Part shown: piece by piece, positions 16,215-46,897 of the stretch
Position numbering within the stretch: the stretch's first letter is position 1
Layout of the letters: the number at the start of each line of letters is the position of its first letter
NCBI RefSeq assembly: GCF_965641715.1
Contig: NZ_OZ282453.1
Direction: 5' to 3' (one strand)
Length of the DNA: 64,000 nucleotides
Source of the DNA: Escherichia coli
Lineage (GTDB): Bacteria; Pseudomonadota; Gammaproteobacteria; Enterobacterales; Enterobacteriaceae
The notes under the pieces: generated by a model
Databases searched by the model: none
What the model saw: only the letters and a program-made list of their open reading frames with translations
What the model was told of the DNA's origin: nothing
Made by a program: the position numbers and the translations under genes

Positions 16215-16271
16215 TCTCTCTGATGTACCAGCAGGGGTAGCCCCCCTGCTTTATTCCTGGACGGAATTGTT

Positions 16272-16940: not shown

Positions 16941-16965
16941 ATAGCTGTGCAGATGGATAACGACA

Positions 16966-28726: not shown

Positions 28727-29920
28727 CTAAAGCGCACCGGCCTTCTGGCGTGCGGTAACAAAGGTCAGTACGCCCGCGCAAAGGAGCAGCACACTACTCA
28801 TGGCAAACGTACTCTGCCAGCCAAGGCGGTCAAACACGATGCCTCCTGCCGTTGATCCAAGGGCGATTGAGAGCTGAATCACCGCGACCATGAGCCCGCC
28901 TCCGGCTTCGGCGTTGTCAGGCAACGTACGCGCAATCCATGTCCACCATCCGGTTGGCGCGGCGGTGGCCAGCATGCCCCAGAGTCCTAACAGCAGCGAG
29001 ACCGTCCAGACGTGATGCCCGGTAAGCATCAGACCGATGGCAATGACGGCCATCAGTCCGGGTATGGCCATCAGCGTGGGGTAGAATTTTCTGTTGAGAA
29101 ATGTCGAAACAACCAGCGTGCCAATAAAACCGGCCACGCCGATAATCAGCAAAATCAACGACAAGCCTAAGGAATTAACCCGTGTCACCGACTCCAGAAA
29201 CGGGCGCACATAGGTGAATAGCGCAAACTGCCCCATGAAAAACAGGCCACAAGCTATCATGCCGACCACAACCATGCGGCGGCTAAATAAGCGGAATACC
29301 GCGCCACATGACGTGTGGCTTTTATTCGCATCCATGCTGGGCAGACTAATGCACTGCCAGATAAAGGCGACAACCGCCATGGGCACCAGGCACAAGAAAG
29401 CGCCTCGCCATCCGACCGTAGCCCCCAGATAGCTTCCCAGCGGCGCGGCCACGACCGTCGCCAGCGCATTACCGGCGTTGAAAATCGCCAGCGCACGCGT
29501 GACCTGATGCTGCGGCACCAGACGAATCGCCGTTGCCGCTGACATCGACCAGAATCCGCCAATGGCCACACCAATCATCGCACGACCGACCATATACATC
29601 AGATAACTGGTAGCCAGCGCAATAATAAGCCCCGATACGGCCATCAGAACCGTCATCCCCAGCAGCAGGAACTTACGATTCATCTTTCCAGCTAGCGTTG
29701 AAAGCGTCAGGCTGGTCAGAACCGCCAGCGCGCCGGAGATAGCAATCCCCTGCCCTGCCAGCCCCTCCGTCACGCCTAAATCGCGGGTAATCGGCGTGAG
29801 CAGGCTGACGGGCATAAATTCAGAAGCAATCAGCACAAACACGCACAGGGTCATGGCAAAAATACCGCCCCAGTATGCGCGCTGATGATGAGGTGATAGT
29901 GTTTGGCTTAGTGTCGACAT
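28727..29920 (-). CDS. MFS-family transporter
   Basis: 397 aa; about 12 predicted hydrophobic helices. Confidence 0.7.
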   Translation of the reverse strand: MSTLSQTLSPHHQRAYWGGIFAMTLCVFVLIASEFMPVSLLTPITRDLGVTEGLAGQGIAISGALAVLTSLTLSTLAGKMNRKFLLLGMTVLMAVSGLIIALATSYLMYMVGRAMIGVAIGGFWSMSAATAIRLVPQHQVTRALAIFNAGNALATVVAAPLGSYLGATVGWRGAFLCLVPMAVVAFIWQCISLPSMDANKSHTSCGAVFRLFSRRMVVVGMIACGLFFMGQFALFTYVRPFLESVTRVNSLGLSLILLIIGVAGFIGTLVVSTFLNRKFYPTLMAIPGLMAVIAIGLMLTGHHVWTVSLLLGLWGMLATAAPTGWWTWIARTLPDNAEAGGGLMVAVIQLSIALGSTAGGIVFDRLGWQSTFAMSSVLLLCAGVLTFVTARQKAGAL

Positions 29921-29995
29921 AGTGAAATTTCACAAAGATCAGGATAAAAGCCACCGGCCATAGACCGGTGGCTTTGCATCAATTCAGGAGAGGTT

Positions 29996-31132
29996 TTATT
30001 TCAGTTTGGCCTGGAAAAATTGTTCGAACTTCGCGAAAGGTATTTTTCCGGCCACGTTATCGTACAGGTCCACGTGATTTGCTCCTGGTACCACCACCAG
30101 CTCTTTGTCGTTACTGCCAACCACCTTGTAAGCATCTTCAGCAAAATAGCGTGAATGCGCTTTCTCACCGGTCACAATCAGCGTCGGGATGGTGATTTCA
30201 CTGGCGTAGCTCAACAGCGGCATATTCATAAATGACAGCGGCATCGTTGCCGTCCACGCCCCGGTAGAGTTAACGGAACGTTCGTGGAAGCCGCGCGGCA
30301 TGCGATAGTAGTCAAAGAACTCTTTCAGTACCGGATGAGGATTTGCCGGCAGCGTTTCTGGCAGAATACGCTCGCCCGCACTGACCTTGCCGTTGCTATC
30401 GACATTAATATCATGACCACCGTGAGCGAACGTTCCGCTCTGCGCATCCTTCCAGCGCTGTTCATTCAGATATTGCAGAACAGCACGACGGTCGGCGGTA
30501 GAATAACGGTCTTCGCCATCCCCCACACCATGGCCCATCGCCCGGCTCATGTCATACATCACGCTGGTAGCAACCGCTTTAACGCGGGTATCCATCGCCA
30601 CGTCGTTCAGCGCCATGCCACCCCAGCCACAAATACCGAGCAGCCCGATACGGTTGCGATCTACCTCTTTTTGCAGCCCTAAGAAATCCACCGCCGCGCT
30701 GAAATCTTCAGTGTTGATATCCGGTGAGGCGACGTTTCGCGGATAGCCGCCGCTTTCCCCGGTGTAAGAAGGATCGAACGCCAGGGTAACAAACCCTCGT
30801 TCCGCCAGCGTCTGCGCATACAAGCCGCTGGATTGCTCTTTCACCGCGCCAAATGGCCCACTGACCGCAATCGCCGCCAGCTTGCGATCGCCACGGTCTT
30901 TAGGCAGGTAAAGATCGCCCACTAAGGTGATGCCATATCGGTTCGGGAACGATACTTTACGGTGATCGACTTTCTGGCTCTCGGCGAACGTTTTATCCCA
31001 TTTATCGGTCATGGACACAGGGGCATTAGGATTGGTTGAATCAGCATAACTCATTGTCGTGACTCCACTTAATGATGCGAAAAGCAGCATGGCCGGCATC
31101 GCGGTTTTTAGCGTTCGGGTGAAGGCTTTCAT
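29996..31132 (-). CDS. Secreted alpha/beta-fold hydrolase, paralog of the 10276-11196 protein
   Basis: Signal peptide (AMPAMLLFASLSGVTTMSYA); GLLGICGWGG nucleophile elbow; C-terminus LVVVPGANHVDLYD parallels the paralog; start ambiguous (ORF reaches 31153). Confidence 0.6.
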   Translation of the reverse strand: MKAFTRTLKTAMPAMLLFASLSGVTTMSYADSTNPNAPVSMTDKWDKTFAESQKVDHRKVSFPNRYGITLVGDLYLPKDRGDRKLAAIAVSGPFGAVKEQSSGLYAQTLAERGFVTLAFDPSYTGESGGYPRNVASPDINTEDFSAAVDFLGLQKEVDRNRIGLLGICGWGGMALNDVAMDTRVKAVATSVMYDMSRAMGHGVGDGEDRYSTADRRAVLQYLNEQRWKDAQSGTFAHGGHDINVDSNGKVSAGERILPETLPANPHPVLKEFFDYYRMPRGFHERSVNSTGAWTATMPLSFMNMPLLSYASEITIPTLIVTGEKAHSRYFAEDAYKVVGSNDKELVVVPGANHVDLYDNVAGKIPFAKFEQFFQAKLK

Positions 31133-31318
31133 AAAAATCCCCATAAAAAACAACAGAGAGATACAGGTTTCCGACGGACAACGCTGCGGTGCTTTACTTT
31201 GATGGGGTCATTATAGTGAGCAGAATTAGTGCTGATTAGGGGGCGATTAATGCTAAGATTAATACCATATTGTTATAAATTAATGCGAAGATTGCCGGCA
31301 TGAAGGGGGGATGTTTCA

Positions 31319-32203
31319 ATGGCGAAAAGGGAGAACTACAACGAGCTGTACCTGTTTATGCAGGTGGTTCGAGAAGGCAGCTTTACCGCAGCGGCTCAGC
31401 GGCTGGGTCTTGCTCAGTCAGGAGTCAGCCGTTCTGTTCGCGAGCTTGAAGAAAGGCTGGGTGTCCAGCTGCTAGTGCGCACCACGCGTAAACTGTCGCT
31501 GACACAAGCAGGCGAGCAGCTCTACCAGAAGACGGCATCTGGATTTGAAATGTTAGATCTTGGGCTTGCCACACTGGCGCACTATCGAGAGACGCCCTCC
31601 GGCACGGTGCGTATCAATGCCAGCCAGCACGCGATTGATAAATGCCTGCTGCCAAAGCTGGCGGTATTTAAACAGCGATATCCTGATATCCGGCTTGAAC
31701 TGATAAATGAGAGCCGGTTCGTCGATATCATCGAGGAAAGATTCGATGCAGGTGTCCGCCTGGGGCCTGAAGTCGGCCAGGGTATGGTCGCGGTACGCAT
31801 CACGCCCGATATGGAGATGGCAATTGTGGGGACTCCGGAACATTTTCGTCGCTATGGTTTTCCGCAAACTCCGGCGGATTTAAAGGCGCATCCCTGTATC
31901 GCCTATCAGTTTGCCGACGGCAGCGTATACCAGTGGGAACTCAATCAGGATGATAAAAAAATCACTCATCGCCCTGAAGGGCAATGGGCCCTATCCGACA
32001 GCTATATGGAAGCAGAAGCCGCCCGGCTGGGCCTCGGATTGGCCTATGTTCCTGTTGAACTGGTCGCGGATGATTTAGAACACGGTAAGCTTATCAGGGT
32101 GTTGCAGCGTTACAGCCTGCGAATGGAGGGATTGTTTCTCTATTACCCTCATCGCAACGTCTCCCCCGCTCTGCGGATGGTCATTGATACATTGAAAATC
32201 TGA
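31319..32203 (+). CDS. LysR-family transcriptional regulator
   Basis: 294 aa; HTH FTAAAQRLGLAQSGVSRSVR; divergent from the hydrolase/MFS genes. Confidence 0.75.
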   Translation: MAKRENYNELYLFMQVVREGSFTAAAQRLGLAQSGVSRSVRELEERLGVQLLVRTTRKLSLTQAGEQLYQKTASGFEMLDLGLATLAHYRETPSGTVRINASQHAIDKCLLPKLAVFKQRYPDIRLELINESRFVDIIEERFDAGVRLGPEVGQGMVAVRITPDMEMAIVGTPEHFRRYGFPQTPADLKAHPCIAYQFADGSVYQWELNQDDKKITHRPEGQWALSDSYMEAEAARLGLGLAYVPVELVADDLEHGKLIRVLQRYSLRMEGLFLYYPHRNVSPALRMVIDTLKI

Positions 32204-32440
32204 ACGTTAACAACGACCGACTCTTCACTGTGCAATATTGTGTCAGGTAGTCACTCTGCGTTCAATTCCAGGGGCCGCTTTGAGCGAGAAAGAGCGGACT
32301 TATCTGTACAAGGGGACTATCCAGCAATGGAGATCACCCAAAAGAAAAAACTACCTGGCTCCCTCAACAACCTTCATCCGGGAATTTAGCCTCAATCAAC
32401 ATTTTTATATCTGTCAGGTTACTTCATTATGAAAACCGAT

Positions 32441-32705
32441 CAATATCGTTGTTTTTGTTGCAATAGTAGAATACGCGTATTTATTCCTCCATTTCTATTA
32501 ATAACGGCCATAAACTGTTCATTTCACTGATATTTAAAATATGCATCCTTTTCAAGCTGTTCAGCGGCGTAAGAAAACGTATTAAATATGAATTCGACGA
32601 TTTAACCATTTCTGTCTGATTGGTAATCATCTGTGATTAATGCTGGTCTATTGATTACGCCAGCATTAACCGCTTAGGGATGTATTCTTCCTGTTGATAT
32701 ACAGC
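32441..32705 (+). repeat. Degenerate second copy of the ykgR-rpmE2-rpmJ2 locus with the central ~680 bp missing
   Basis: 32441-32546 aligns to 13099-13215 (ykgR 3' end plus downstream); 32550-32705 aligns to 13896-14046 (rpmJ2 last codons plus downstream flank); about 80-85 percent identity by eye. Confidence 0.6.
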
Positions 32706-32903
32706 CTCGAAAAAGAGAGAAAATAAAACTGTGTCCAATATTACTTTACTACTCCAGACCGAAGCATCGGTAGAATTAGCAGAACGACTGGTACAGAAGG
32801 TGGGTATAGCGTCATTTGTCAGGTATTCCATTGCCTGACAAATGACAATTTTGAGTCAATAGACGTGCTTCTTGATCATGTCTTAAAAATTATACCATGA
32901 GCC

Positions 32904-33134
32904 TTATGAAGCATTATTTTTACTGACTGGTGTTAACTTTGCTATCATATAAACTCTGTTCTTAAAAAACGCGCCCAGAATTTTATATGATTTCCCTTGT
33001 TTTTCTGCCTGTAAAGAAATTTCTTTTTCAGTGCTGTTAATGGTTGAACCGACGGCAGTAATCGTTTTGGCGACGCTACTGAATGATAATAAAGACAGTG
33101 CAACCACAACAATTAAAGAACAGATAGTATTCAC
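32904..33134 (-). CDS. Small secreted protein, DUF1471 (BhsA/YdgH/McbA-like) family candidate
   Basis: GTG start 7 nt after an AGGAG Shine-Dalgarno; signal peptide; C-terminal AEKQGKSYKILG resembles the DUF1471 signature. Confidence 0.45.
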   Translation of the reverse strand: MNTICSLIVVVALSLLSFSSVAKTITAVGSTINSTEKEISLQAEKQGKSYKILGAFFKNRVYMIAKLTPVSKNNAS

Positions 33135-33347
33135 GCTAATTCTCCTGACAATTGAGAGGATGAGTTTTATATATAAAGGCATTAAACATGAGTCATGTTT
33201 ACTTCCTGTGAAAATAATCTTTCTGTAATTAAACCCTCATCTCCTTCGGGGTGAGCAATACATAATGCATCTTGCTATGAAAAACACAGGGATATATAAA
33301 TCTTCCTTCTGACCTATTTAATAAAACGTGAATGTAAAAATTATTCT

Positions 33348-34070
33348 TCAGTTTGCAGATGCAGTGGGTCTGATGGTAATTTCGGTTGTATCAACGCTTT
33401 CGGGAGATTCAATAATATGCCTTACCGCACGGGCAATATCCGCAGGTTGAAGTGCAACAGAACGGTAGGCGTCCATTGCCTTCATGGTTTCCACATGGGT
33501 AATGGTTGAAGCCAGTTCACTTTCGACAACGCCAGGATTTACGCAGGTCACACGGATTTTCGAGCTTTCCTGCCGTAAGCCATCAGAAATAGCCCGTACT
33601 GCAAATTTGGATGCACAATAGACTGCGCCTGTGGGCACAACAGAAAGGGCACCAATAGAACCAAGATTGATTATCTGACCGGAACCCTGTGCTTCCATCA
33701 CCGGAAGTACAGCGCCAATTCCCCACAGTACACCTTTGATATTCACGTCAATAGTGAGCTCCCATTCATCCTGTTTTCCTGCTGCAAGCGGTGAAAGCGG
33801 CATAACGCCCGCATTATTGATAAGAACATCAACTCGCCCCCAGCTATCCAGCGCTACTTGCACGAAATCTGCCATGGACTGTCGGTCTGTGACATCCAAC
33901 TCCCGAGCTTTAGCAATTCCTCCTGCGCGGCAAATTTCGGTTGCAATGGCTTCGATACGCTCAACTCTGCGTGCTCCCAGTAAAGTCTTTGCACCTGTCG
34001 TTCCCAGCTCTCTGGCAATACCTTCCCCAATACCACTTGATGCGCCGGTGATTAATATGACCTTATCCAT
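33348..34070 (-). CDS. Short-chain dehydrogenase/reductase (SDR)
   Basis: TGASSGIG Rossmann motif and catalytic YxxxK (YCASK). Confidence 0.75.
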   Translation of the reverse strand: MDKVILITGASSGIGEGIARELGTTGAKTLLGARRVERIEAIATEICRAGGIAKARELDVTDRQSMADFVQVALDSWGRVDVLINNAGVMPLSPLAAGKQDEWELTIDVNIKGVLWGIGAVLPVMEAQGSGQIINLGSIGALSVVPTGAVYCASKFAVRAISDGLRQESSKIRVTCVNPGVVESELASTITHVETMKAMDAYRSVALQPADIARAVRHIIESPESVDTTEITIRPTASAN

Positions 34071-34168
34071 TACGTTCTCCTTCAAATGTGTTCGGAGAGA
34101 GAATAGAACTTTATGATTGGTTCCAGTATCCTGCTTTCAATGTACTCAGTGGTTAGCGGCATTAAACA

Positions 34169-35068
34169 ATGAAAATCGATCTTAATCTTTTACCCATTTT
34201 TATCGCGGTAGCAGAAGAAAGTAATTTTAGTAAAGCCGCCGCACGACTGGGCGTTACCCGTTCAGCGGTCAGTCAGGGAATAAGACGCCTTGAAGATGCA
34301 TTCGGGACAATGCTTGTAATGCGGACCACGCGCTCAGTTAATTTGACGGAAGCGGGAGAACGGCTGCATAAATCGTTGTCATTACCTTTATCCGGTATTG
34401 AGACAGCGTTCGAAGAGATGGTTTCTGATCATGTACCACGTGGACTTCTCAGAATCGCAGTGACGTCAATAGCTGAAGAATTTCTTTCAGGTCCGCTAAT
34501 CGCTTCGTTTGCAGCAGCCAATCCAGCCGTTACGCTTGATATTGTTGTCACGGATGAGGAATTCGATATCGTGGCCGCAGGTTACGATGCTGGCGTAAGG
34601 CTCGGAGAGGTCATTGAAAAAGACATGATTGCTGTGCCCCTTACCGGCAGTCAGCGTGAAATGGTCGTTGCCTCTCCCTCCTATCTCGCAGCCAACAGCA
34701 CACCTGTTCATCCGCGTGAACTTGTGAATCATAAGTGTATCGGCTGGCGTCAGTCCCCGGAGGTTGCGCCTTATCGCTGGCCATTTGAAGAAAACGGGAG
34801 AGCTTTCGACCTTGCGATTGAACCGCAGATTACGACTAATGATCTGCGTCTGATGTTGAGGCTGGCTCTTGCCGGCGGAGGAATAACAATTGCCACTCAG
34901 GAAACTTTCAGGCCGTATATTGAAAGCGGTAAGCTTGTATCTCTGCTTGATGACTTTCTTCCACAATTTCCGGGCTTCTATCTGTATTTCCCACAGCGTC
35001 GCAATATTGCACCAAAGCTCCGCGCCCTGATTGACCACGTCAAGGAATGGCGGCAGCAATTGGCTTAA
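34169..35068 (+). CDS. LysR-family transcriptional regulator
   Basis: 299 aa; HTH FSKAAARLGVTRSAVSQGIR; divergent from the SDR gene. Confidence 0.75.
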   Translation: MKIDLNLLPIFIAVAEESNFSKAAARLGVTRSAVSQGIRRLEDAFGTMLVMRTTRSVNLTEAGERLHKSLSLPLSGIETAFEEMVSDHVPRGLLRIAVTSIAEEFLSGPLIASFAAANPAVTLDIVVTDEEFDIVAAGYDAGVRLGEVIEKDMIAVPLTGSQREMVVASPSYLAANSTPVHPRELVNHKCIGWRQSPEVAPYRWPFEENGRAFDLAIEPQITTNDLRLMLRLALAGGGITIATQETFRPYIESGKLVSLLDDFLPQFPGFYLYFPQRRNIAPKLRALIDHVKEWRQQLA

Positions 35069-35193: not shown

Positions 35194-35211
35194 ATGGTGC
35201 CGATAATAGGA
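35194..35211. repeat. attL: 18-bp direct repeat (atggtgccgataatagga) identical to the thrW 3' end at 46821-46838
   Basis: Exact match read directly; marks the island boundary distal to the integrase. Confidence 0.7.
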
Positions 35212-35391
35212 ATAAAATAAAACAATAACATACTGAAAAATATACAAAAAAGAAACACACCGTTAAGTAATGCCCCCGAAAATGCCCCCATAATAGATGC
35301 CGCAGTAAGTCGACTTGTCCCAAGGACTGGTAAGTAATGTCAATAGCGGGAACAAAGAGACATTACTTACCGAGAATGGAATCCATTTAGG

Positions 35392-36621
35392 TTATGCTGG
35401 CCAATCCCACTGCTGATAGGCAGAGAATAGGCGCGTGAGCTCAGCAGGCGCAAGAATATCAACAATATTAGCTCTGTAGCTATGCGATTTACCTAATGGA
35501 ACATTTTCGAAATGATTAGCTTGATAAGGATTAAAATCGTGAAGCTCACCTAATGTTGAGATATCGGTATTAATAGTTTTAAGCCAAGAAACAAGAATTA
35601 CTTTTGCCCCTGTTCTCTGTATGTAAGCTCTTGCCGATTCAAAACTATAGCCTCGAGTTGTTATATCATCTATAAGAAGTACTGTTTTACCAGGGCCTAA
35701 AGGTGGTTTTTTATAGGTAGTTCTAGGATTTCTGTGTGGCTGAGAATTAAGACAAATTGTATTAAGTTGATTGCAATGGTCAATTGCAACTCCCTCATTT
35801 CTTGCTTTTTGAGATTTTTTGGAAGTCGTATGCCTTAAAATAAGATCTGGGATATACGTCTTGCGAAAACATTTTCCAAATATTGAAATCGCTTCATCCA
35901 TGATATTATTCCCATATCCTTGCTTATGCCCTGGATAAACACTAACATAATTAATCATCTTATGAATGCCACTAAAATAGAGACTGGATATTAAGGCACT
36001 CGTCCAAAATTCAGGATGGCCTAATCCATGTTTAGCAGCAGCACGAGCATCTTCAGAGTAAAGAGTATACTCTTCCTTCATGGTGCTGAAAGGAGCAAGT
36101 GCATAGAAATTAAAATCACCATCGTGAATTTCATGACACCAAAGATGCTCTCTTAAACAGAAGGTATCTATAAATCTAGCAATATCTTTAGGGGTTGAAA
36201 ACTCGAAACCATAATCTGTTTTGTCTGCCCACCATGTAGCTCTTAAAAAGAGCAACTCACCATTAACTGCTGTTTGCATGTCGTTTATCGAAGCACCAAT
36301 GTACAAAGTTTCTGTACTTTCCCAACCCATCAAATCAAGGACATATTTTGTAGCATCCGCAGTTGGCTTCCCTGGAATGCTCTTATCTTTCGCTCGACAA
36401 AGATATTTAAATTCTCCCCAATGCTTTTGTAACACATCCTCTAAAGGGGTTCTTTCATCTCCGACAACCCAACCCCTGTTAGTGAATACAACAAACTCGA
36501 TCTTTTTAGTTCTGAAATATCTAATTAATTTATCTACCTCTGCAAAGATTTCGCTATCGATCTTTCCCTTAGGCACAAGAATATCTTCAACACTAAGAAT
36601 CACACCCTTAATTTTGCTCAT
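35392..36621 (-). CDS. Protein with C-terminal phosphoribosyltransferase (PRTase) domain; ShosT-like candidate effector
   Basis: 409 aa; PRPP-binding motif VLLIDDITTRGYSF near the C-terminus; N-terminal ~250 aa unassigned; AT-rich; 11 bp downstream of the DprA-like gene. Confidence 0.65.
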   Translation of the reverse strand: MSKIKGVILSVEDILVPKGKIDSEIFAEVDKLIRYFRTKKIEFVVFTNRGWVVGDERTPLEDVLQKHWGEFKYLCRAKDKSIPGKPTADATKYVLDLMGWESTETLYIGASINDMQTAVNGELLFLRATWWADKTDYGFEFSTPKDIARFIDTFCLREHLWCHEIHDGDFNFYALAPFSTMKEEYTLYSEDARAAAKHGLGHPEFWTSALISSLYFSGIHKMINYVSVYPGHKQGYGNNIMDEAISIFGKCFRKTYIPDLILRHTTSKKSQKARNEGVAIDHCNQLNTICLNSQPHRNPRTTYKKPPLGPGKTVLLIDDITTRGYSFESARAYIQRTGAKVILVSWLKTINTDISTLGELHDFNPYQANHFENVPLGKSHSYRANIVDILAPAELTRLFSAYQQWDWPA

Positions 36622-36631
36622 TTCATCTTCC

Positions 36632-37612
36632 TTAGAGATCTAAGCTCTGCTGTATCGGCTGTGCTTTTAAATCATGATTATTATTCAAAATATAATTACT
36701 CATCTCATTCAATTCAAAAGGCATTAAAAAAGATAAAGAATTTCTATTTTCTTCAGCAAACTTCAATTCTGGTCTACTTTCATACGTAGTAGGAAGATAT
36801 GGACTCGCTATCTTTTTTGCATACTTAAAAGCATAATCAACAGTATGTGATGTTCCACTTTTAATATTCCATTCGACTGGTATTAGTGAATCACATAAAG
36901 CAGCCTGGATTCTGTTACGCCTTACAAAATTTTCTGCGCTATATGTTTGTTCAGGTAGATACTCGGTAACGATAGCCCCACCATTAGAAACTATTGCTCG
37001 ATATAACTCTTTAGAACCTTTCGGATACTCGACAAAAATCCCATTACCCAATACCGCAATAGTTGGAATGCCATATCTCAGCGATTCATAATGACAACAT
37101 TGATCTATTCCTGTCGCCAAACCACTGACTGTTGAAACATCTTTAGAATATAGAGAAGAAACAATCAGTTTTACTAGAAAAATACCATCATCCGTTGGCT
37201 TTCGTGTCCCCACAATTGCAACAGATTTCTTATTAAGAAGTTCATAATTACCATGAACAAAAATCCAAAATGGCGGATCGCTTATGTTCTTTAATGATTG
37301 AGGAAATGTAGCCTGATCATAAAAGGTGAGCACAATACCATTTTTATTGAGTTCACGAGCTCTCTCCAGTCCCTTAGACCAAAGGTCTTGTTGAAATGTT
37401 TCCCAAGATATATTTTTAGGCAAGGAAACTCTTAGATATCCTGCCAAGGCATCAGCTGTATTATCTTTTAATATATTCTTAAATCCAATTTTGGATTGAT
37501 AGATTTTGCGAAGCGTCCAGTAACCAACCCCCTTTAGACAAGTTAAGGCAAGAAACGCAATAATTTCATTTTTCCAAAACTCTCTAACTTCAGTGTAATC
37601 TTTATATTCCAT
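36632..37612 (-). CDS. DprA/Smf-like (SLOG-superfamily Rossmann) protein; ShosA-like candidate
   Basis: DprA signature region (VAIVGTRKPT ... SGLATGIDQCCH ... TIAVLGNGIFVEYP ... FVRRNRIQAAL); start set at the internal Met MEYKDY. Confidence 0.65.
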   Translation of the reverse strand: MEYKDYTEVREFWKNEIIAFLALTCLKGVGYWTLRKIYQSKIGFKNILKDNTADALAGYLRVSLPKNISWETFQQDLWSKGLERARELNKNGIVLTFYDQATFPQSLKNISDPPFWIFVHGNYELLNKKSVAIVGTRKPTDDGIFLVKLIVSSLYSKDVSTVSGLATGIDQCCHYESLRYGIPTIAVLGNGIFVEYPKGSKELYRAIVSNGGAIVTEYLPEQTYSAENFVRRNRIQAALCDSLIPVEWNIKSGTSHTVDYAFKYAKKIASPYLPTTYESRPELKFAEENRNSLSFLMPFELNEMSNYILNNNHDLKAQPIQQSLDL

Positions 37613-38027
37613 TTTACGTTTGCCTTTTAGATTACAACCCGTACTCAACACAAAAAATTTAGAAAATTGTTGCCAAAAGCATATTATAAATAGCATCTTA
37701 CCGCAGATTTGTGAAGCAACAACATCCCTAGGAGAAACCTTAACCTAGCGGGACAACTTACTGACCAATCCTCAGCTAGCTCATTGAATTGCCCCCATAT
37801 CGCACAGCCCCGCACGCCTGCCCGCTTCGCTTAACAGACTGGTTTTCATGCACCTCATAAATCGTCTCAGAAGCCACCAAACAAGGGCTTTCTCGTCAAA
37901 AATGGTGCATAAGACTCATGCGTTTTCATGCGCCATAGACATGCACTCATGCGCTCTCAGGCCAGCCAGGGAAAAGGTGTTAAAAATCCCGGTACTCGAC
38001 CGGGATTACGTAGGCGTTTTTTTCTAA

Positions 38028-38300
38028 TCAGACAGGAATCTGCTGACGGCTTGACAGTTTTGACGCGGAGCCATAGCGATTGAGCGTTTGCTGTTGTTTT
38101 ACCGGGGTTTGTGATTTGTCTGGTTCCTGTTCATTGCGCCGGGGTTTCATGATTATCTTATCCACACTCTCCAGTGCCGTAAATGTGCAGGAACATTCCA
38201 GATTCTGGCACTGATACCACGAGCGTTTAACTGACGGAGCTTCATAGGCTGCTGTTCTGGCGTGTGCAACTGTACCGCATTCCGGACATTTAAGTGCCAT
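38028..38300 (-). CDS. Ogr/Delta-family zinc-finger late-gene activator
   Basis: CPECG...(H)...YQCQNLECSCTF zinc-finger spacing as in P2 Ogr / P4 Delta. Confidence 0.75.
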   Translation of the reverse strand: MALKCPECGTVAHARTAAYEAPSVKRSWYQCQNLECSCTFTALESVDKIIMKPRRNEQEPDKSQTPVKQQQTLNRYGSASKLSSRQQIPV

Positions 38301-38305
38301 TAATA

Positions 38306-38857
38306 TCACTCCTGTATATCGTTAATGTCATTCAGGCGTTGCTGAAAACGCAGATGTTGTGCCGGGGTGTAAGAGCCCTGGCAATCACGAATCATACTGG
38401 GGTCAGGCATCAAACCGGATTCATCCAGGATCTCACGATAATCCCCGGCAATTTCAGGCGGTGTTATTGCCAGCTGGCGAACCAGAGCACTGCGTAATAT
38501 ACGGGACGCAACGTCAACCCCTCCGCGCCCCTTCAGGAACGGAGCCAGTGCAGATGTCAGGGCTGCCCCATTCGCCTGCATAAAATTGCTGAGAGCGGCT
38601 TCTGTGCAGGCCTCCATCAGTAAATGCTGCGAGTAAATGCATTCGCGCGCAGCACAGTTAATTTGCCATTTCAGCACATCCAGACGTTCCCGCAGGAATT
38701 CGAGCTGTCGGGCATAATCTGCTGGTTTTTCTGTGGCAGCGAGGAGAGATGTTATCTGTTGTTCAACGGCTTTTCGGCTCTCACTATGTCTGGCCCACAG
38801 AATACGGGCATTCCGAAAACTGGTAAGTACCTGGTCAGGTGTGCCTCGGGCCGTCAT
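38306..38857 (-). CDS. Psu-like (polarity suppression / capsid decoration) protein
   Basis: 183 aa; resembles my recollection of P4 Psu (LKWQINCAAR ... FMQANGAALTSALAPFL); overlaps neighbours by 4 bp. Confidence 0.55.
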   Translation of the reverse strand: MTARGTPDQVLTSFRNARILWARHSESRKAVEQQITSLLAATEKPADYARQLEFLRERLDVLKWQINCAARECIYSQHLLMEACTEAALSNFMQANGAALTSALAPFLKGRGGVDVASRILRSALVRQLAITPPEIAGDYREILDESGLMPDPSMIRDCQGSYTPAQHLRFQQRLNDINDIQE

Positions 38858-39597
38858 ACTGCTTTCTCCTTCTCAGCAAGTTCCTGACGAACCTTTATTT
38901 TATGCATAGCTGCTGGAGAGAGTTGATTACTGAAATCCAGACGCGCCGCATAATCCGGGGCAACTCCCGCCAGTTTAAACACCGGGTCCTGTTCAGGCAT
39001 CGCATCGTTAGCCAGAGCCGGTCTGGTGATATGTTTATGAATAAAGTCTTTCAGCACTGTGTCCGGGTCATTAACTGAATTCACCACACCCACAACGGCA
39101 CTGGCTTCCCGGCCCATTGTGGATTTAAGCAGGCTCAGCGTCTGAATAAGCGCTTTTCCATGCGACTGCATAAAATCCTCCCAGATTTGTTTTGCGCGAA
39201 TATCCACAAGAATGTTATGCGCGTGGATATACTTTCCGGCTAATTCCGCAGCTTTCTGCGGCAAAAGTGCATTTTCGCTTTCCTGAGCCGCCAGCAGCTC
39301 ATCAAAATCCTCAAGCGTTTCTCGTCCCAGCGCAATTTCCGTGCGCAGTTTTTTCATTTCCTTTGAGACCACGCCCTGACTTTCACGAAACAGCGTGCGC
39401 CACTCCTCATTCAGTGTATTCGTCGTGGATTCCATTTCAGCGCGACGCTGGCGGATTGTCGCAATATTATCCGCTGCCGCTTTCTGCTGACGACGTGCTT
39501 CAAGCCATGCGTTTCTGGCTGTGTTCATGGTTTCCAGTGCCCGCTGCGTTACAGCCGGAAAAGTGGAAAGGTTGTTATTCACTGCGGTGTTGTTCAT
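38854..39597 (-). CDS. Sid-like (capsid size determination) protein candidate
   Basis: 247 aa; Psu/Sid-fold-like segment; position upstream of psu-like. Confidence 0.45.
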   Translation of the reverse strand: MNNTAVNNNLSTFPAVTQRALETMNTARNAWLEARRQQKAAADNIATIRQRRAEMESTTNTLNEEWRTLFRESQGVVSKEMKKLRTEIALGRETLEDFDELLAAQESENALLPQKAAELAGKYIHAHNILVDIRAKQIWEDFMQSHGKALIQTLSLLKSTMGREASAVVGVVNSVNDPDTVLKDFIHKHITRPALANDAMPEQDPVFKLAGVAPDYAARLDFSNQLSPAAMHKIKVRQELAEKEKAV

Positions 39598-39776
39598 GAC
39601 TTCTCCTGTCGGGTTGGTTCGTTACGTCAATTGTGTCGTGGCTGACACAAGCACACTATCGGTGCTCAGTGTGTGGTGGCTGGCACAACGGGCGCTTGCG
39701 GTTATTCAGACGTGGCTATGAAAGCCAGCCAGATAAAAATGCCCACTGTTTCAGTCTGCTTTATGTCCCTGATGCG

Positions 39777-39964
39777 GTGGAACAGGTGAAACATGTGTTA
39801 CAGCTTTGTTTTATAAATCATTTATATACACTGCACCGGTGGAACATCGCGGGTAACAAGGTGGAACAGCGGATTGGCTGGCGTTACATCTGTTCCACCT
39901 CACTATTTCAGAAGGTGGAACAGGTTCAGCCCCTGTAAAATACGGTTGTTCCACCTGTTTCACC
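39777..39964. repeat. Iteron cluster: at least 8 copies of GGTGGAACA / TGTTCCACC (and GGTGAAACA variants) in both orientations; candidate replication region
   Basis: Copies at 39777, 39785, 39838, 39860, 39891, 39914, 39947, 39956; similar to the P4 type-I iteron TGTTCACC; immediately 3' of the alpha gene. Confidence 0.55.
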
Positions 39965-39998
39965 TGTTACCCTTAATAAATAAGACTCACGCAAAGCC

Positions 39999-42671
39999 TT
40001 AACCCGGCACCTCGCTGTTGAAGACATAGAGCCTGCGGGGATTCATCTCTGGCGGGCGAATGGTTGTCTGGAGTTTGCCATCAGTGGAGGGCAGCAGGTA
40101 TCCACGATCTGCGCACAGACGCGCCACCTTGCGCGGGTCAAATCCCCTGCAGATTTCTTTCCAGCCGGACGGCATGACATAAAACGTAGTGACAGCTTCC
40201 GTGCCCTGCGCGGTACTGCCTTTCTCCACCCTGCGCCAGCCCACCATATTGGCGGGGCGGTTGCGCTCGTCATACCAGTCTGCAAAGCGGCTGTACTGAT
40301 TCGCGGTAAAGAAACTGCGAACCTGCTCCAGTGCGGCGATATCTTCCTGATTGGCGGTGTGCCCGCGCTCTTTCAGCCATGCGTTCAGGCAGACGCGGGT
40401 TGCCCGCAATGCTTCACCCTCAGGCCAGCCGGTGATACCCTGACGGGTTGCCAGTTCACCTGCCATCGCCACCAGTGCAAAGCGGTTCACAGCCCGGCCC
40501 ACCTGATTGCCTGCATCTTTCGGAGTCAGGGCGGCAGCATATTCCTTCATCAGCGATTTTGCCTGTGCCGTTAGTCCGTTAAGATCAGCGGTCAGTGCTT
40601 TCAGCCACTCCCGGAACGGCGAACCGTAGTAGCAGGACGTGGCCCATTCAAGATGCTCTGCCAGAGCCTTGCCGCTGTCGAAGCCGTGCAGCTCCTCAAA
40701 AACGCCAAACTTCCCGGAATCGCTGGGGATCTGGATCATCCTGACTTCCATCCCGGCAAAAGTACGCTCACCGGCCTTTGCCGCATGTTCGGTCAGAGAT
40801 AACTCGCCAGTTGAAAAGAACAACAGGCGCCACTGCTTACGGGTACGCAGTTCACCGTCCGTACCGGCACGACCCTTGCCCTGACCGTTTGCCAGCATGT
40901 AGGCGATATTGCCTGCCTCGCGTCCGTCAACTTCCCGGATCTCATCAAGCATCATGGCGGCATCGTTGCGGCGGCTGGCACATCCCTCCAGCGCGTTGCC
41001 GGTGGCCCGCCATGTCTGCCAGTAGTCAGGCCCGCCGCAGACGGAGGTTGCCGCTTTCATGGTGGTGGTCTTACCGTCTGTCGATTCCCCTTTGAGGTGG
41101 TAGCCGCCGCCGTCCATACCAACCAGCCGTAACAGTGGTGCAGCAAAGGCCAGGCTGACAGCAAATGCCACGCGGGAGTTGCCGGTACAGTAGCGGGATA
41201 CGTTCTCCCGCCATTCCTCTGTTGTGCCCGACACGCGGAAATCACGCCCCTGCACGGAAGTGGTCTGGAGAATGACACCCTCTGCACCTTCACCGCTGAC
41301 CTCATCCTGCAGGACGTAAACCTGACCATGCCAGCCAGTACGGCTGACGCAGGTCACGCGACGTTCCGGTTTACACAGTGAGATATATTCCATCAGGCGT
41401 GCGCGTGCCTCACCGGTGGTGCTGATATAAGACAGCCCGTTAACAAGCAGTACCCGGCGCAGTTCCTCACCACTGCCGCTCAGCATTTCCATCGGCATCG
41501 CCCAGCGGCGACGCTCACCCCACGTATCTTCCCATTCCAGCAGTCGTCCGAAGTTACCGCCATCGGCATCGCAGGTGATTGCCGTCACGCGCAGCGGGCT
41601 GCATATTTTGACGTTCTGGATCTCCGTCTCACCGTTGCGCTGTACCTGCTTTTCATACCAGAGATATTCCTGGGTAAGACGGAACCCGTGCGGCAGTTGC
41701 GTGCGGCCTTCCCCGCACAGTACCAGACCGTTGCGAAAGGCTTCACGGGCACGGGTAATACCGTGCTCCCGATGAAAGTCATTCCAGTCAGCCTTAATCT
41801 CTCCTGGTGGCAGCGTCATCCAGCCGCCAACAGCTTTTGCCGCCCGTTCAGCAAAGGCTCTGCCGGGATTCTCCCCCCCGTCCTGAAAATCGTTATCACC
41901 GGCGATGATAATTTTTACCTCAGGCCAGCGTGCCCGCAGCGACTGCGCCACATTGGGCAGGTTGCCCGCAGATATGGCAGCCACTACGCATCCGGCAGTG
42001 AGCTGGCTTACCGTCAGCGCCGTAGCGTAACCTTCGGTAATCACCACCTGTACCGGTGGTTCAGACGGTAACGGGCTGAGCGACACAAACGCGCCTTTCA
42101 TCGTGCTGCCGGGCAGTATGCTTTTTTCACCCGTCGGGGCGATAAGCTGTGCACCGGTCACGGCTCCGGTGTTGGTCGTGAGTGGTAACAGCAGGGAACC
42201 AGCAGGAAAATCCTTACCGCTGATATGCTGCACGCTTCCGGTCAGAGAGGCCGGGTATCCGGCGAACCCTTTTCCTGCCAGATAGGCACTTTCTCCCGTG
42301 TGGCTCTCTTTCATCAGCGTCGCCACGGTAAGGCTCATGTCGCGTTTAGGGGCTTTTTGTCTGGCAGGCTTAACAGGCAGTTCCTGCACATCCGGCACAT
42401 TAAGCACCTGCGCCACCTGCTGCGCAGCCTTTCTGACGTTGTAGCCGGTTACGAGCTTAACCAGATCCAGACCGTCACCATTGCCACACTGGCTGCAGAT
42501 CCACGTCCCGCGCCCGTCAAGGTCATCGAGGCGAAAACGATCCTTGCCCCCACATTTCGGGCAGGGACCGTGCCTGCCGTTTTCAGGTACATCAATACGC
42601 AGCATATGCAGAATAACGGGCCATTTCCCCCGCGCGGCGGCTGAAATCTGCGTAACCGTCTGTATTGTCAT
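39999..42671 (-). CDS. P4 alpha-like primase/helicase
   Basis: 890 aa; N-terminal zinc-binding CPKCGG...CSQCG; Walker A GESTDGKTT. Confidence 0.8.
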   Translation of the reverse strand: MTIQTVTQISAAARGKWPVILHMLRIDVPENGRHGPCPKCGGKDRFRLDDLDGRGTWICSQCGNGDGLDLVKLVTGYNVRKAAQQVAQVLNVPDVQELPVKPARQKAPKRDMSLTVATLMKESHTGESAYLAGKGFAGYPASLTGSVQHISGKDFPAGSLLLPLTTNTGAVTGAQLIAPTGEKSILPGSTMKGAFVSLSPLPSEPPVQVVITEGYATALTVSQLTAGCVVAAISAGNLPNVAQSLRARWPEVKIIIAGDNDFQDGGENPGRAFAERAAKAVGGWMTLPPGEIKADWNDFHREHGITRAREAFRNGLVLCGEGRTQLPHGFRLTQEYLWYEKQVQRNGETEIQNVKICSPLRVTAITCDADGGNFGRLLEWEDTWGERRRWAMPMEMLSGSGEELRRVLLVNGLSYISTTGEARARLMEYISLCKPERRVTCVSRTGWHGQVYVLQDEVSGEGAEGVILQTTSVQGRDFRVSGTTEEWRENVSRYCTGNSRVAFAVSLAFAAPLLRLVGMDGGGYHLKGESTDGKTTTMKAATSVCGGPDYWQTWRATGNALEGCASRRNDAAMMLDEIREVDGREAGNIAYMLANGQGKGRAGTDGELRTRKQWRLLFFSTGELSLTEHAAKAGERTFAGMEVRMIQIPSDSGKFGVFEELHGFDSGKALAEHLEWATSCYYGSPFREWLKALTADLNGLTAQAKSLMKEYAAALTPKDAGNQVGRAVNRFALVAMAGELATRQGITGWPEGEALRATRVCLNAWLKERGHTANQEDIAALEQVRSFFTANQYSRFADWYDERNRPANMVGWRRVEKGSTAQGTEAVTTFYVMPSGWKEICRGFDPRKVARLCADRGYLLPSTDGKLQTTIRPPEMNPRRLYVFNSEVPG

Positions 42672-43051
42672 ACTTCCCCCTGATACAACGTCACACCAGT
42701 ACTGCAGAAGTCATCAAAGGTCGCCGGAAGCGTGCGGTACATCTCCGCCATTACTTCACAGCCGCGCGCGGTCAGTACCGGCGGCGCGGTCAGCAGTGAC
42801 GGCTCCAGCATGTCAGTCAGCAGTGCCAGCGCGGCAGCGGCGCCCTGTGCTTCGCCGTACTCGTTAATCAGTGCGCACTCGATATGCAGCGCAATGGCCA
42901 TTTCAATACGCTCCACCGTCAGGCTGTGCGGACCATACTGATCACTGCCAGTTTCGTTCAGCATTTTCTGCCGCCATGCTGAAGCAATAGCCCGCCGGTA
43001 AAGCGCGGTTGTCATTTCTGCCGGGAAAATGGAAACCTGCGGCTGGTTCAT
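42668..43051 (-). CDS. Hypothetical protein, satellite left operon
   Basis: 127-aa ORF; 4-bp overlap with the alpha start and the upstream ORF. Confidence 0.4.
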   Translation of the reverse strand: MNQPQVSIFPAEMTTALYRRAIASAWRQKMLNETGSDQYGPHSLTVERIEMAIALHIECALINEYGEAQGAAAALALLTDMLEPSLLTAPPVLTARGCEVMAEMYRTLPATFDDFCSTGVTLYQGEV

Positions 43052-43332
43052 CTGGCACCTCCTTCAATCAGTGCACAGCTGTGCGCAATATCCGTCAAAT
43101 CTGCCCGCAGGTACTCCATCAGCGCGGCGACACCATGCGCACAGCCAGCGTCCAGTGCTCCGGCCTGAGACGGGTATTCAGAAAAGAGAAGCTGGAGCAT
43201 GTCGCAGGCATTTCTTGCGCGGGTCAGCTTTCCGAAACTGTCCTCTGACAACCCATAGGCAAAAGCACCGGTATTGTGTTTTTCAGGCAAAGTGTGGCCC
43301 TGAGCACCGTTGTGCCCGTTTGAAATATTCAT
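43048..43332 (-). CDS. Hypothetical protein, satellite left operon (epsilon-position)
   Basis: 94-aa ORF in an overlapping gene train. Confidence 0.4.
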   Translation of the reverse strand: MNISNGHNGAQGHTLPEKHNTGAFAYGLSEDSFGKLTRARNACDMLQLLFSEYPSQAGALDAGCAHGVAALMEYLRADLTDIAHSCALIEGGAR

Positions 43333-43363
43333 CGTGGATTACTCCGTTTTCAGCGGTATTTTG

Positions 43364-43723
43364 TCAGAGAAACTTTGAATAGTGACCGTCGTCAGGCTCA
43401 GCAGAACGCCGTATGCTACGCTCCCGCCAGCGGATAAATAGCACAGACGGATGCAGTGTCAGCGGGCCGGAACCACTACCGCCTGCAGGAGCTGGTGCAG
43501 GCTTAAAGAGCGGTACATCAAACAGGCGCGTATACCGCTGTTCAAACCATGCCAGAGGGCAGGAAGAAAGCTGGTTGTCGCTGTCATGACGTATCAGCAC
43601 TTCACAGCTGAATTCAGGATTAACCAGCGCCACAGAGGGCGAGGCTTCAATTAATCGGATAATCGTGACCGTCCAGCCACGTTCATGCTGCCAGCGTTCG
43701 CCGGGGTGCGGATAATTACGCAT
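43364..43723 (-). CDS. Hypothetical protein, satellite left operon
   Basis: 119 aa from the internal Met MRNYPHPGERW; ATG overlaps the stop of the upstream small ORF. Confidence 0.4.
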   Translation of the reverse strand: MRNYPHPGERWQHERGWTVTIIRLIEASPSVALVNPEFSCEVLIRHDSDNQLSSCPLAWFEQRYTRLFDVPLFKPAPAPAGGSGSGPLTLHPSVLFIRWRERSIRRSAEPDDGHYSKFL

Positions 43724-43892
43724 GTTCACCTCCGCAGGGAATGCGCCCGGCAAAGCTCAGTACATAATCCGGGGCAAGTCTTCGCCGCGCTGACCGCTCG
43801 TTATCTGCGGTGATCCTTAACATCACAGGACGGGCATTGCGTTGACTGCGGTTGATCGCCGCAAATAACCAGGTACACTTCTGTTTAGCCAT
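43716..43892 (-). CDS. Small basic protein (58 aa), first gene of the left operon
   Basis: ATG with AAGAGG Shine-Dalgarno 8 nt upstream; MAKQKCTWLFAAINRSQRNARPVMLRI...; not in the ORF track. Confidence 0.3.
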   Translation of the reverse strand: MAKQKCTWLFAAINRSQRNARPVMLRITADNERSARRRLAPDYVLSFAGRIPCGGEHA

Positions 43893-43983
43893 CTTCGTTA
43901 CCTCTTATAACGGTTGGTTAAATGCCCGATTTGTGTTCCCGCACAATCGGGCATTGCTTTTACAAGCGAACTATACTTACAAT

Positions 43984-44023
43984 GGTAATTACCATGTAGT
44001 CATCATATTCCAGGGTAATTACC
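43984..44023. promoter_or_regulatory. Two copies of the perfect 10-bp palindrome GGTAATTACC (43984-43993 and 44014-44023); candidate operators
   Basis: Read directly; between the divergent left operon and the RHH ORF. Confidence 0.4.
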
Positions 44024-44197
44024 ATGTCAACACCACAAGAGAAACGTTCCCCACCATTCCAAATGCGTCTTACCGACGATTTTAGGTTGCAACTCGAAAA
44101 AGAAATGCGCAAAGATGGAGATAGCGCGTTGGCAACTTGGATTAAAAGAATTTTACGTAAAGAACTACAATCACGCGGGATTGACCCTAAAGGTTAA
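44024..44197 (+). CDS. Ribbon-helix-helix (Arc/MetJ-like) candidate repressor, 57 aa
   Basis: MSTPQEKRSPPFQMRLTDDFRLQLEKEMRKDGDSALATWIKRILRKELQSRGIDPKG; beta-strand plus two helices pattern; not in the ORF track. Confidence 0.45.
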   Translation: MSTPQEKRSPPFQMRLTDDFRLQLEKEMRKDGDSALATWIKRILRKELQSRGIDPKG

Positions 44198-44229
44198 TCA
44201 GTTAAATATTACTAACTATCAATTAAGGC

Positions 44230-44520
44230 TTAGGGAGTAGGTGATAATCTATTCCCTTTATTAATTGCTCTTGCCTTATTTCTCATCCCCTCAAACTGTT
44301 GACCTGAGTTTTCTTCAAACCCATCTCGCCACTTATAATAATCAGCAGCGCGCCATCGGGACATCCGACCTATTTTTATAGGTTTTGGAAAGCGATTCAG
44401 AGAAATCAATCGATAAATCCATTTGTCACTTAATAAACAATCGGAAGTAATAAACTTCATATCGATCAGAGAATCCATTGAAGGTCGTTGCAAAGTAGTA
44501 TTATCATGTTTAGATAACAT
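44230..44520 (-). CDS. alpA: AlpA-family prophage regulatory protein
   Basis: Motif IYRLISLNRFPKPIKIGRMSRWRAADYYKW typical of AlpA; true start may be an internal Met. Confidence 0.65.
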   Translation of the reverse strand: MLSKHDNTTLQRPSMDSLIDMKFITSDCLLSDKWIYRLISLNRFPKPIKIGRMSRWRAADYYKWRDGFEENSGQQFEGMRNKARAINKGNRLSPTP

Positions 44521-44645
44521 TCATCATTCTCCGTTTATCTAAGTCTATTGGCTTCAACACGGAAAATTAAAACATAGGTTATAAATGAGAAAAATGTGAC
44601 TAATGAAAAAAATCCAAAATCATTAGTCACAATAATTGTTAACAT

Positions 44646-46657: not shown

Positions 46658-46821
46658 TGGGGGCACATTTCCTAGACCGAACAGAACATGCCCCTGATTG
46701 TGCCCCCAACCGCGTGTTGATTTCAAGAGACAAGGGTTGACCTCAAACGTATGAAAACAACGTAATATATATGTTTTTAAATGATTTTGTTGATGTGGGT
46801 TGACTTGGGAAAACTAGGTGA

Positions 46822-46897
46822 TGGTGCCGATAATAGGAGTCGAACCTACGACCTTCGCATTACGAATGCGCTGCTCTACCAACTGAGCTATATCGGC
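46822..46897 (-). tRNA. thrW: tRNA-Thr (anticodon CGU)
   Basis: 76-nt cloverleaf GCCGATATAGCTCAGTTGGTAGAGCAGCGCATTCGTAATGCGAAGGTCGTAGGTTCGACTCCTATTATCGGCACCA on the minus strand; 3' end duplicated at attL. Confidence 0.9.

Follow-up and report, generated by a model that had tools for sequence, protein, structure and literature searches.

The original description of ShosTA is reportedly that of Kimelman in 2012. [quoted passage not shown] The reference system is a two-gene operon with shosA upstream, in which ShosT combines a HAD-like with a PRTase domain and ShosA a SAM with a DprA domain. Its carrier is an element of the P2/P4 family, a P2-like prophage, in which the pair is inserted as cargo between the gpA and gpQ genes, close to the cos region. 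The cargo position of P4-like satellites has been described as a defence hotspot (Rousset 2022), and the P4 hotspot table of that paper includes HAD/Hydrolase/Pribosyltran and DNA_processg_A pairs, e.g., WP_021501220 with WP_001393214.

The locus described here lies in a 64,000-nt stretch of an E. coli contig (the window). ShosTA as a type of system has already been published, including the mechanism, the structures and the occurrence in P2/P4 hotspots, and the locus adds little that is new. It provides a well-delimited case in which a P4-like satellite integrated at thrW carries ShosTA as a cargo module. [quoted passage not shown]

The gene pair and its expression signals

Both open reading frames were located on the minus strand, shosA at 36632-37612 (326 aa) and shosT at 35392-36621 (409 aa), and the RefSeq annotation of an identical locus gives the same coordinates for the two genes. 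The open frame of the 326-aa protein can be extended to 37696. The start at 37612 is supported by RefSeq and by the lengths of the homologues (325-327 aa). The genes are separated by a junction of 10 nt (36622-36631, minus strand) with a Shine-Dalgarno-like GGAAGA before the second ATG, and this short gap together with the GGAAGA implies a single operon. The GC content of the cassette is 0.35-0.39, versus ∼0.5-0.6 in its surroundings, so that the pair was rightly portrayed in the first-pass annotation as two tightly linked, AT-rich minus-strand genes. The same annotation had pointed out that the DprA-like gene precedes the PRTase gene. This order is indeed present, and it is not unusual, since the validated APEC O1 system is arranged in the same way.

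Upstream of shosA, a non-coding region specific to the cassette (37613-37801, minus strand) presumably harbors the promoter and includes a perfect TATAAT at 37683-37688 on the minus strand. A promoter consensus scan yielded 9 promoter-like sites versus 9.2 expected, with nothing above background, so that the promoter and the expression signals of the cassette are presumptive; the terminator consensus scan returned 0 terminators versus 2.0 expected. Downstream, 21 nt past the shosT stop, a 13-bp perfect inverted repeat forms a stable hairpin (35329-35371, minus strand). The 81-nt stretch that contains it (35315-35395) had a predicted folding energy of -24.9 kcal/mol (z = -4.7), equalled by none of 200 shuffled sequences. 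The hairpin is possibly a 3′-end or terminator structure, though it lacks a U-tract. A search for distant DNA similarity between the intergenic region that separates the ogr/delta gene from the cassette (37613-38320) and phage records gave no match.

The P4-like satellite and its cargo position

The pair is carried by an 11.6-kb P4-like satellite, integrated at tRNA-Thr (thrW) and bounded at both ends by 18-bp att repeats. The tRNA-distal repeat, ATGGTGCCGATAATAGGA, marks the end of the satellite at 35194-35211 (plus strand), and the tRNA-proximal repeat at 46821-46838 (plus strand) overlaps the 3′ end of the tRNA-Thr(CGT) gene (46822-46897, minus strand); exactly two copies of the repeat occur in the window, versus 0.01 expected by chance. 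Between them, all on the minus strand and in agreement with their RefSeq names, were recognized an ogr/delta-like gene (38028-38309; phrog_603, 7.5e-22), psu (38306-38857; phrog_6366, 1.7e-69), a sid-like gene (38854-39597; phrog_6165, 7.2e-93), a P4 alpha-like primase/helicase gene with TOPRIM and DUF927 domains (39999-42671; phrog_1139, 1.2e-183) and a tyrosine integrase gene adjoining tRNA-Thr (45467-46726; phrog_1, 1.3e-74). This gene content, together with the att pair at tRNA-Thr, bears out the earlier identification of the element as a P4-like satellite, with the pair placed between the ogr/delta gene and the tRNA-distal att repeat. In its integrated form the satellite carries the integrase gene at the opposite end, which distinguishes it from P4 itself. 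An Rfam search over the satellite called the tRNA alone; neither a retron-like nor a P4 CI-type RNA was called.

The variable module that holds the gene pair spans ∼35221-37801. On one side, the chromosomal flank common to other strains stops at ∼35211-35220; on the other, similarity to satellites with different cargo breaks at ∼37802-37805. The satellite backbone (37802-46838) is ∼98.6% identical in many E. coli genomes in which the segment 35194-37801 is missing, and in the two satellites inspected (in MS1665 and CD09) the position of the pair is occupied by other gene sets (AAA ATPase with S8 peptidase; SMEK with DUF2326). The occurrence of other gene sets at the same position in such similar backbones argues for the pair being cargo. 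The cassette is thus precisely the part that differs among near-identical satellites, as the designation of a variable cargo position had implied, and the ShosTA pair is swappable cargo in a known defence hotspot of P4-like satellites.

The cargo is bordered by a conserved block of ∼57 nt (37794-37850), common to 756 of the 5,426 E. coli genomes. Within it, a cos-like sequence, GCGAAGCGGGCAGGCGTGCGGGG (37808-37830, minus strand), was detected by local BLAST as a match to the P4 cos junction that is weak when taken alone (83% over 24 nt, E=0.15). The exact 19-nt cos end of P2/P4 is absent, even with three mismatches allowed. The APEC O1 cassette is likewise carried close to cos in an element of the P2/P4 family; for the pair described here, proximity to cos is tentative.

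ShosT and ShosA compared with the reference allele

The 409-aa protein matched the PADLOC ShosT profile PDLC03012 at 3.1e-94 (residues 4-408, profile 6-426/427) and the crystallised ShosT (PDB 8zvb/9w2p) at 2e-88 (residues 4-408), and is, to judge from these alignments, a full-length, high-confidence member of the ShosT family. The PRPP-binding PRTase motif noticed in the first-pass annotation, VLLIDDITTRGYSF, occupies residues 314-327. The ∼250 residues that had been left unassigned proved to comprise an N-terminal HAD-like domain of the pyrophosphatase type (Pfam Hydrolase PF00702, residues 24-119, 2.2e-5) and the N-terminal part of a non-canonical, C-terminal PRTase fold. The PRTase signal obtained with generic libraries was weak (PF00156, E=0.015; NCBIfam APRT, 0.003), so that, of the two Pfam profiles which had been proposed as a check, PF02481 gave a strong match to the partner protein and PF00156 did not, while E<1e-88 was reached with the profile built for ShosT and in the PDB search.

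The 326-aa protein was recognized by the PADLOC ShosA profiles (PDLC03961, 2.5e-90; PDLC02997, 2.5e-77) and by the PDB entries of ShosA (9vzo/8zva, 1.3e-71, alignment from residue 12), and appears by the same token to be a full-length, high-confidence ShosA. Its DprA/Smf-type Rossmann domain corresponds to Pfam DNA_processg_A (PF02481, residues 88-287, 4e-58), and the region before it could be aligned, in the crystal structure of ShosA, with residues 1-94, which form the SAM domain, as anticipated from its SAM-like appearance. The two proteins therefore align with the reference proteins in full and share their domain architectures. Whether the pair would represent a close homologue or a divergent variant of ShosTA had been left undecided; with identities to the APEC O1 allele of about 38-40% for ShosT and 42-46% for ShosA (38-46% overall), the alignments mark it as a clear yet divergent copy of the system already characterised.

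The residues essential for toxicity and neutralisation in the reference allele are conserved. In ShosT of APEC O1/KTE181, mutations of H240, K280, R285, D331 and D332 abolish or reduce toxicity; the equivalent H232, K269, R274, D318 and D319 are all present, and across 117 family members these PRPP-related columns carry H in 117, K in 114, R in 113 and D in 117 and 117 sequences. In ShosA, the single mutation of either of the ssDNA-binding arginines R139 and R234 abolishes neutralisation, and both are retained (R137 and R232), as is K200 (K198 here), the mutation of which weakens RecA binding most.

Several other positions differ from the reference. In the putative pyrophosphatase pocket of ShosT, N53 and K92 are kept as N48 and K85, K54 is replaced by R49 and R56 by W51. 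A tryptophan occupies the R56 position in 103 of the 117 relatives retrieved, and in the reference protein R56 contacts phosphate in the pocket, its mutation to alanine having lowered toxicity just marginally. In ShosA, the RecA-contacting R206 is replaced by Y204 (with R205 alongside) and the ssDNA residue R261 by D259, while the dimer-interface positions L144, L181, F182 and L275 correspond to D142, R179, Y180 and L273; D142 and R179 might replace the dimer contact by a salt bridge. The C-terminal tail, the source of instability in APEC O1 ShosA, is unrelated in the protein of the window and could not be aligned.

Function, alternative explanations and relatives

Taken together, the pair very probably represents a type IV toxin-antitoxin system of the abortive-infection type, ShosTA, which serves as exchangeable cargo of the P4-like satellite at thrW. 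Several observations favor ShosTA: both proteins match the profiles and PDB structures over their full length, the genes are as tightly linked as in the reference and follow in the same order, the PRPP-binding residues, the neutralisation arginines and K200 are conserved, and a DprA-like gene lies directly upstream of ShosT homologues in Pseudomonas, Shewanella and Salmonella, in which the mobile elements differ. Counting against it are the low identity, the substitutions W51, Y204, D259 and D142/R179, the unalignable tail and the promoter and terminator scans at background level. Toxicity, rescue, trigger and phage range of this allele are matters that we infer by analogy with the reference. 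[quoted passage not shown] For its part, ShosA would act without binding ShosT: as a dimer on ssDNA, it would engage RecA and stimulate repair by recombination, thereby offsetting the damage. Upon infection, the function of ShosA, an unstable protein in the reference system, would be lost when the phage shuts off host transcription, as T7 does through Gp0.7, or when ssDNA intermediates flood the cell, and pre-existing ShosT would then kill the cell before the phage cycle is completed.

Several other explanations were weighed. The pair could be mainly an addiction or stabilisation module that retains the satellite in the chromosome by killing cells devoid of it, and contribute little or nothing to defence against phages. 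Such a role would suit a mobile toxin gene that is accompanied by a gene for a labile antitoxin and adjoins the att site of a satellite able to excise, and homologues likewise adjoin resolvases and plasmid or conjugation genes; the protection conferred by the validated homologue and the alternation of unrelated gene sets at a position described as a defence hotspot nevertheless make this explanation improbable, and the two roles are in any case not mutually exclusive. Less probable still, indeed slight in its chances, is an inactive remnant with intact frames and neither expression nor activity. The promoter scan, which called none, and the divergence at several tested residues are compatible with decay, as are the copies disrupted by IS3 in two other strains, both NCTC strains. 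There, however, shosT is broken and shosA intact; decay should take this direction with ShosT as the toxic member of the pair, and the observation counts in favor of ShosTA. Against a remnant, the pair was found in 9 of the 5,426 complete E. coli genomes, from different sources, with both frames intact and at least 99.8% identical, and the essential residues are conserved; that the toxin gene has stayed intact beside a likewise intact gene for the antitoxin speaks for an active system.

A housekeeping, competence-type pair of DprA/Smf and a ComF-like PRTase, merely situated near the satellite, is refuted for practical purposes. Pfam and NCBIfam do recognize the DprA domain, the RefSeq name of the protein is "DNA-processing protein DprA", and competence DprA/Smf shares with this ShosA the Rossmann fold and the conserved ssDNA-binding arginines. 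Its scores are, however, below the NCBIfam cut-offs for the competence DprA equivalogs TIGR00732 and PRK10736 (162.4 versus 191.15 and 130.9 versus 495), and a far better fit was obtained with the profiles of ShosA and ShosT. Moreover, in contrast to competence DprA, the gene is mobile, located within the att repeats, paired with a toxin gene, rare in the species and missing from near-identical satellites.

It is also conceivable, though rather unlikely, that the allele belongs to a functionally distinct ShosTA subfamily, which would be the majority type among the relatives retrieved. With respect to the reference, the HAD pocket has R49/W51 in place of K54/R56, a possible D142-R179′ salt bridge takes the place of the dimer contact L144-L181′, and neither the RecA contact R206 nor the destabilising tail is conserved. 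Should these differences be of consequence, the N-terminal domain may lack pyrophosphatase activity, or the turnover and triggering of ShosA may depart from what is modelled for APEC O1; phage range or trigger could then differ, possibly tuned to the life of the satellite with its P2-type helper.

PsyrTA (RqlHI), which also has a DprA-like antitoxin, was considered as well. The PsyrA profile matched the Rossmann domain at 1.4e-24, ∼65 orders of magnitude below the ShosA match, and covered residues 87-259 only; the candidate was rejected.

The subfamily to which the allele of the window belongs covers many gammaproteobacterial genera. In the truncated versions of the supplementary tables of Rousset 2022 that were covered, the accessions of the window (WP_001716168 and WP_001567470) were not found; the listed pair WP_021501220 and WP_001393214 resembles it, according to the domain listing, in the combination of domains and in the kind of satellite hotspot. 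A nearer relative is the satellite allele of E. coli R12 / LI60C3, 68% (ShosT) and 61% (ShosA) identical to that of the window and also located downstream of the ogr/delta gene of a P4-like element. It shares the W51, R49, D142/R179 and D259 states but differs at the R206 position, where it has Arg instead of Tyr, and the backbone of its satellite is a different one, with a gene for a major capsid protein of the P2 family. In RefSeq, the names "phosphoribosyltransferase" and "DNA-processing protein DprA" mask the defence-system nature of the pair.

Identification of a ShosTA-type gene pair

Both minus-strand open reading frames proposed in the first-pass annotation were recovered, namely shosA (36632-37612, minus strand; 326 aa) and, downstream of it, shosT (35392-36621, minus strand; 409 aa). 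The two genes are arranged as an operon, with a gap of 10 nt and a GGAAGA preceding the second ATG. A longer frame of shosA extends to an ATG at 37696, but the start at 37612 is favoured by the RefSeq annotation of an identical locus and by the lengths of the homologues (325-327 aa). The cassette is AT-rich, as had been noted earlier, with a GC content of 0.35-0.39 versus a background of 0.5-0.6.

The 409-aa protein matched the PADLOC ShosT model over its full extent (3.1e-94; positions 6-426 of the 427-position profile), and its best PDB match, at 2e-88 over residues 4-408, was to crystallised ShosT (8ZVB and relatives). Similarly, the 326-aa protein matched the PADLOC ShosA models (2.5e-90 and 2.5e-77), with crystallised ShosA (9VZO/8ZVA; about 1e-71) as its best PDB match. 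These matches bear out the original reading of a DprA-like and phosphoribosyltransferase (PRTase) pair of the ShosTA type. Among the Pfam profiles, the DprA assignment was clear (DNA_processg_A, 4e-58), while Pribosyltran was marginal on the toxin (0.015), which is instead recognized by the dedicated ShosT model. Some 250 toxin residues previously left unassigned comprise a HAD-like pyrophosphatase domain together with the N-terminal part of a non-canonical PRTase fold, as judged from a HAD-type Hydrolase match (2.2e-5, residues 24-119) and the published ShosT structures. The observation is thus confirmed, and its interpretation as a member of the ShosTA defence family is supported by these comparisons.

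A housekeeping competence pair was also considered and is refuted. In addition to the ShosA and ShosT profile matches, the 326-aa protein scored under the cut-offs of the NCBIfam DprA equivalogs that it matched, evidence that it is no housekeeping DprA. Of 5,426 complete E. coli genomes, 9 carry the exact cassette, and near-identical satellites lack it.

Comparison with the characterised allele

The family and its hotspot are already known, and the former is structurally characterised; the window allele represents a new member. Rousset et al. (2022) validated a DprA and PRTase pair from the P2 hotspot of E. coli APEC O1 against T7 and lambda, and their P4-hotspot table includes "HAD_2/Hydrolase/Pribosyltran + DNA_processg_A" pairs. 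The name ShosTA was given by Millman et al., who did not achieve deletion of shosA. Structures and mechanism were described by Pu et al. (2025) and Yang et al. (2026): ShosT causes a PRPP-dependent disturbance of purine metabolism and has an accessory PPase, and the antitoxin ShosA binds ssDNA and engages RecA but does not bind ShosT; the trigger is transcription shut-off mediated by T7 Gp0.7, possibly also phage ssDNA. Of the two mechanistic studies considered, one used the APEC O1 allele and the other that of E. coli KTE181, which appear to be the same allele, since the window protein gives equal scores with both PDB sequences. For the window locus, the present analysis establishes family membership, domain architecture, residue conservation, operon structure and cargo status. 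The locus would be expected to share this type IV toxin-antitoxin abortive-infection mechanism, and homology likewise predicts its toxicity, rescue, trigger and phage range.

The APEC O1 locus belongs to a P2-like prophage, in which it is flanked by the gene for the replication endonuclease and the portal gene. There too the DprA-like gene precedes the toxin gene, so that the DprA-first order flagged earlier is canonical. The window proteins share 38-39.5% (ShosT) and 42-46% (ShosA) identity with their APEC O1 counterparts. Residues mutated in the published work were mapped onto the window proteins by alignment. In ShosT, H240, K280, R285, D331 and D332 are all conserved (window H232, K269, R274, D318 and D319), in columns that are invariant or nearly so among 117 family members; in ShosA, R139, R234 and K200 are conserved as R137, R232 and K198. 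In contrast, ShosT R56 is replaced by W51, the majority state (103 of 117 retrieved relatives), and K54 by R49; the published R56A mutant was only marginally reduced in toxicity. ShosA R206 and R261 correspond to Y204 and D259, and the R261E mutant kept function. The C-terminal tails of ShosA could not be aligned. The window-type subfamily (W51, D142/R179, Y204 and a different tail) is the majority type among the retrieved relatives.

In the published ShosA dimer, L144 and L181 touch each other across the interface. The window allele (D142 and R179) and that of E. coli R12 have oppositely charged residues at these two positions, suggesting that a compensatory salt bridge may replace the leucine contact.

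The pair may possibly serve the satellite that carries it as an addiction module, a role compatible with defence. That the cassette is an inactive remnant is unlikely, in view of its conserved essential residues and of two intact frames whose identity across nine genomes is 99.8% or higher.

The satellite and its cargo position

The cassette is cargo of an 11.6-kb P4-like satellite (35194-46838). A direct repeat of 18 bp, ATGGTGCCGATAATAGGA, marks the two ends of the satellite (35194-35211 and 46821-46838), and its second copy falls within the tRNA-Thr(CGT) gene thrW, beside proA/proB. The backbone encodes an integrase, AlpA-like, Icd-like and Sid-like proteins, an alpha-type primase, Psu and an Ogr/Delta-like zinc-finger protein. 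In many genomes this backbone (37802-46838) is present with an identity of about 98.6%, while 35194-37801 is missing. As anticipated for a variable cargo position, other gene sets occupy the site in strains MS1665 (an AAA ATPase and S8 peptidase pair) and CD09 (SMEK, a hypothetical protein and DUF2326). Local alignments placed the module edges at about 35220, just beyond the att core, and at about 37802-37805. A conserved block bordering the cargo (37794-37850), common to 756 of the 5,426 E. coli genomes, holds a weak cos-like sequence; the exact P2/P4 cos 19-mer was not found, so that adjacency of cargo and cos is plausible, not established. Near the cos-like sequence, in the conserved ogr/delta-to-cargo intergenic region, an 18-nt motif (ACTCATGCGTTTTCATGC-like) occurs three times in imperfect form (37834-37962).

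In P4, attP lies between int and alpha, and the prophage cargo is therefore flanked by psu/cos and int. The window satellite has a different layout, with int on the tRNA side and the cargo at the distal end; because the P4 attP is on the other side of int, integrase and cargo of the window element stand at opposite ends when integrated. Psu-to-integrase extraction, as used by Rousset et al., would probably miss elements of this class.

A 274-aa ORF (44646-45470, minus strand) occupies a very AT-rich patch (GC about 0.33) between the integrase and AlpA-like genes. It had no match in PHROGs, NCBIfam or PADLOC, belongs to the conserved backbone and is annotated as hypothetical in other strains; it may be a second accessory gene.

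Relatives and flanking sequence

ShosT homologues (54-96% identity) were found in Klebsiella, Salmonella, Cronobacter, Yersinia, Serratia, Pseudomonas, Shewanella, Vibrio and other genera. Contigs of Pseudomonas, Shewanella and Salmonella were inspected, and in these the homologue is directly preceded by a DprA-like gene; the surroundings are resolvases together with conjugation genes, or McrBC with Abi_2, or a P4-like satellite. The R12 allele, a third one in E. coli (68% and 61% identity), holds the corresponding position in another type of P4-related satellite, which encodes a 'P2 family phage major capsid protein' (16219-17223 of the R12 locus, L003) and has no annotated psu or sid genes. 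In NCTC11121 (1643-4133 of its locus, L007) and NCTC9966, an IS3 element splits shosT into ORFs of 189 and 1044 nt while shosA is intact. The toxin partner seems to have been inactivated naturally in these two strains; although anecdotal, decay in this direction is what one would predict if ShosT is the toxic member.

At 35329-35371, 21 nt past the shosT stop, a perfect inverted repeat of 13 bp encloses a 17-nt loop; the surrounding 81 nt fold at -24.9 kcal/mol (z = -4.7). The hairpin lacks a U-tract and is therefore not a classical intrinsic terminator. Nearby, AATGCCCCC occurs twice in tandem (35269-35289).

Between paoD (27590-28546) and the satellite att site, the region 28727-35068 contains five ORFs that match known families (a NepI-like MFS transporter, a lactonase-like protein, an SDR oxidoreductase and two LysR regulators, the second of them full-length) and a 92-aa ORF without family assignment (32904-33182). 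Only a 339-nt LysR fragment follows paoD in strains LR-64-2, MS1665 and CD09, which seem to carry a deletion beside the integration site.
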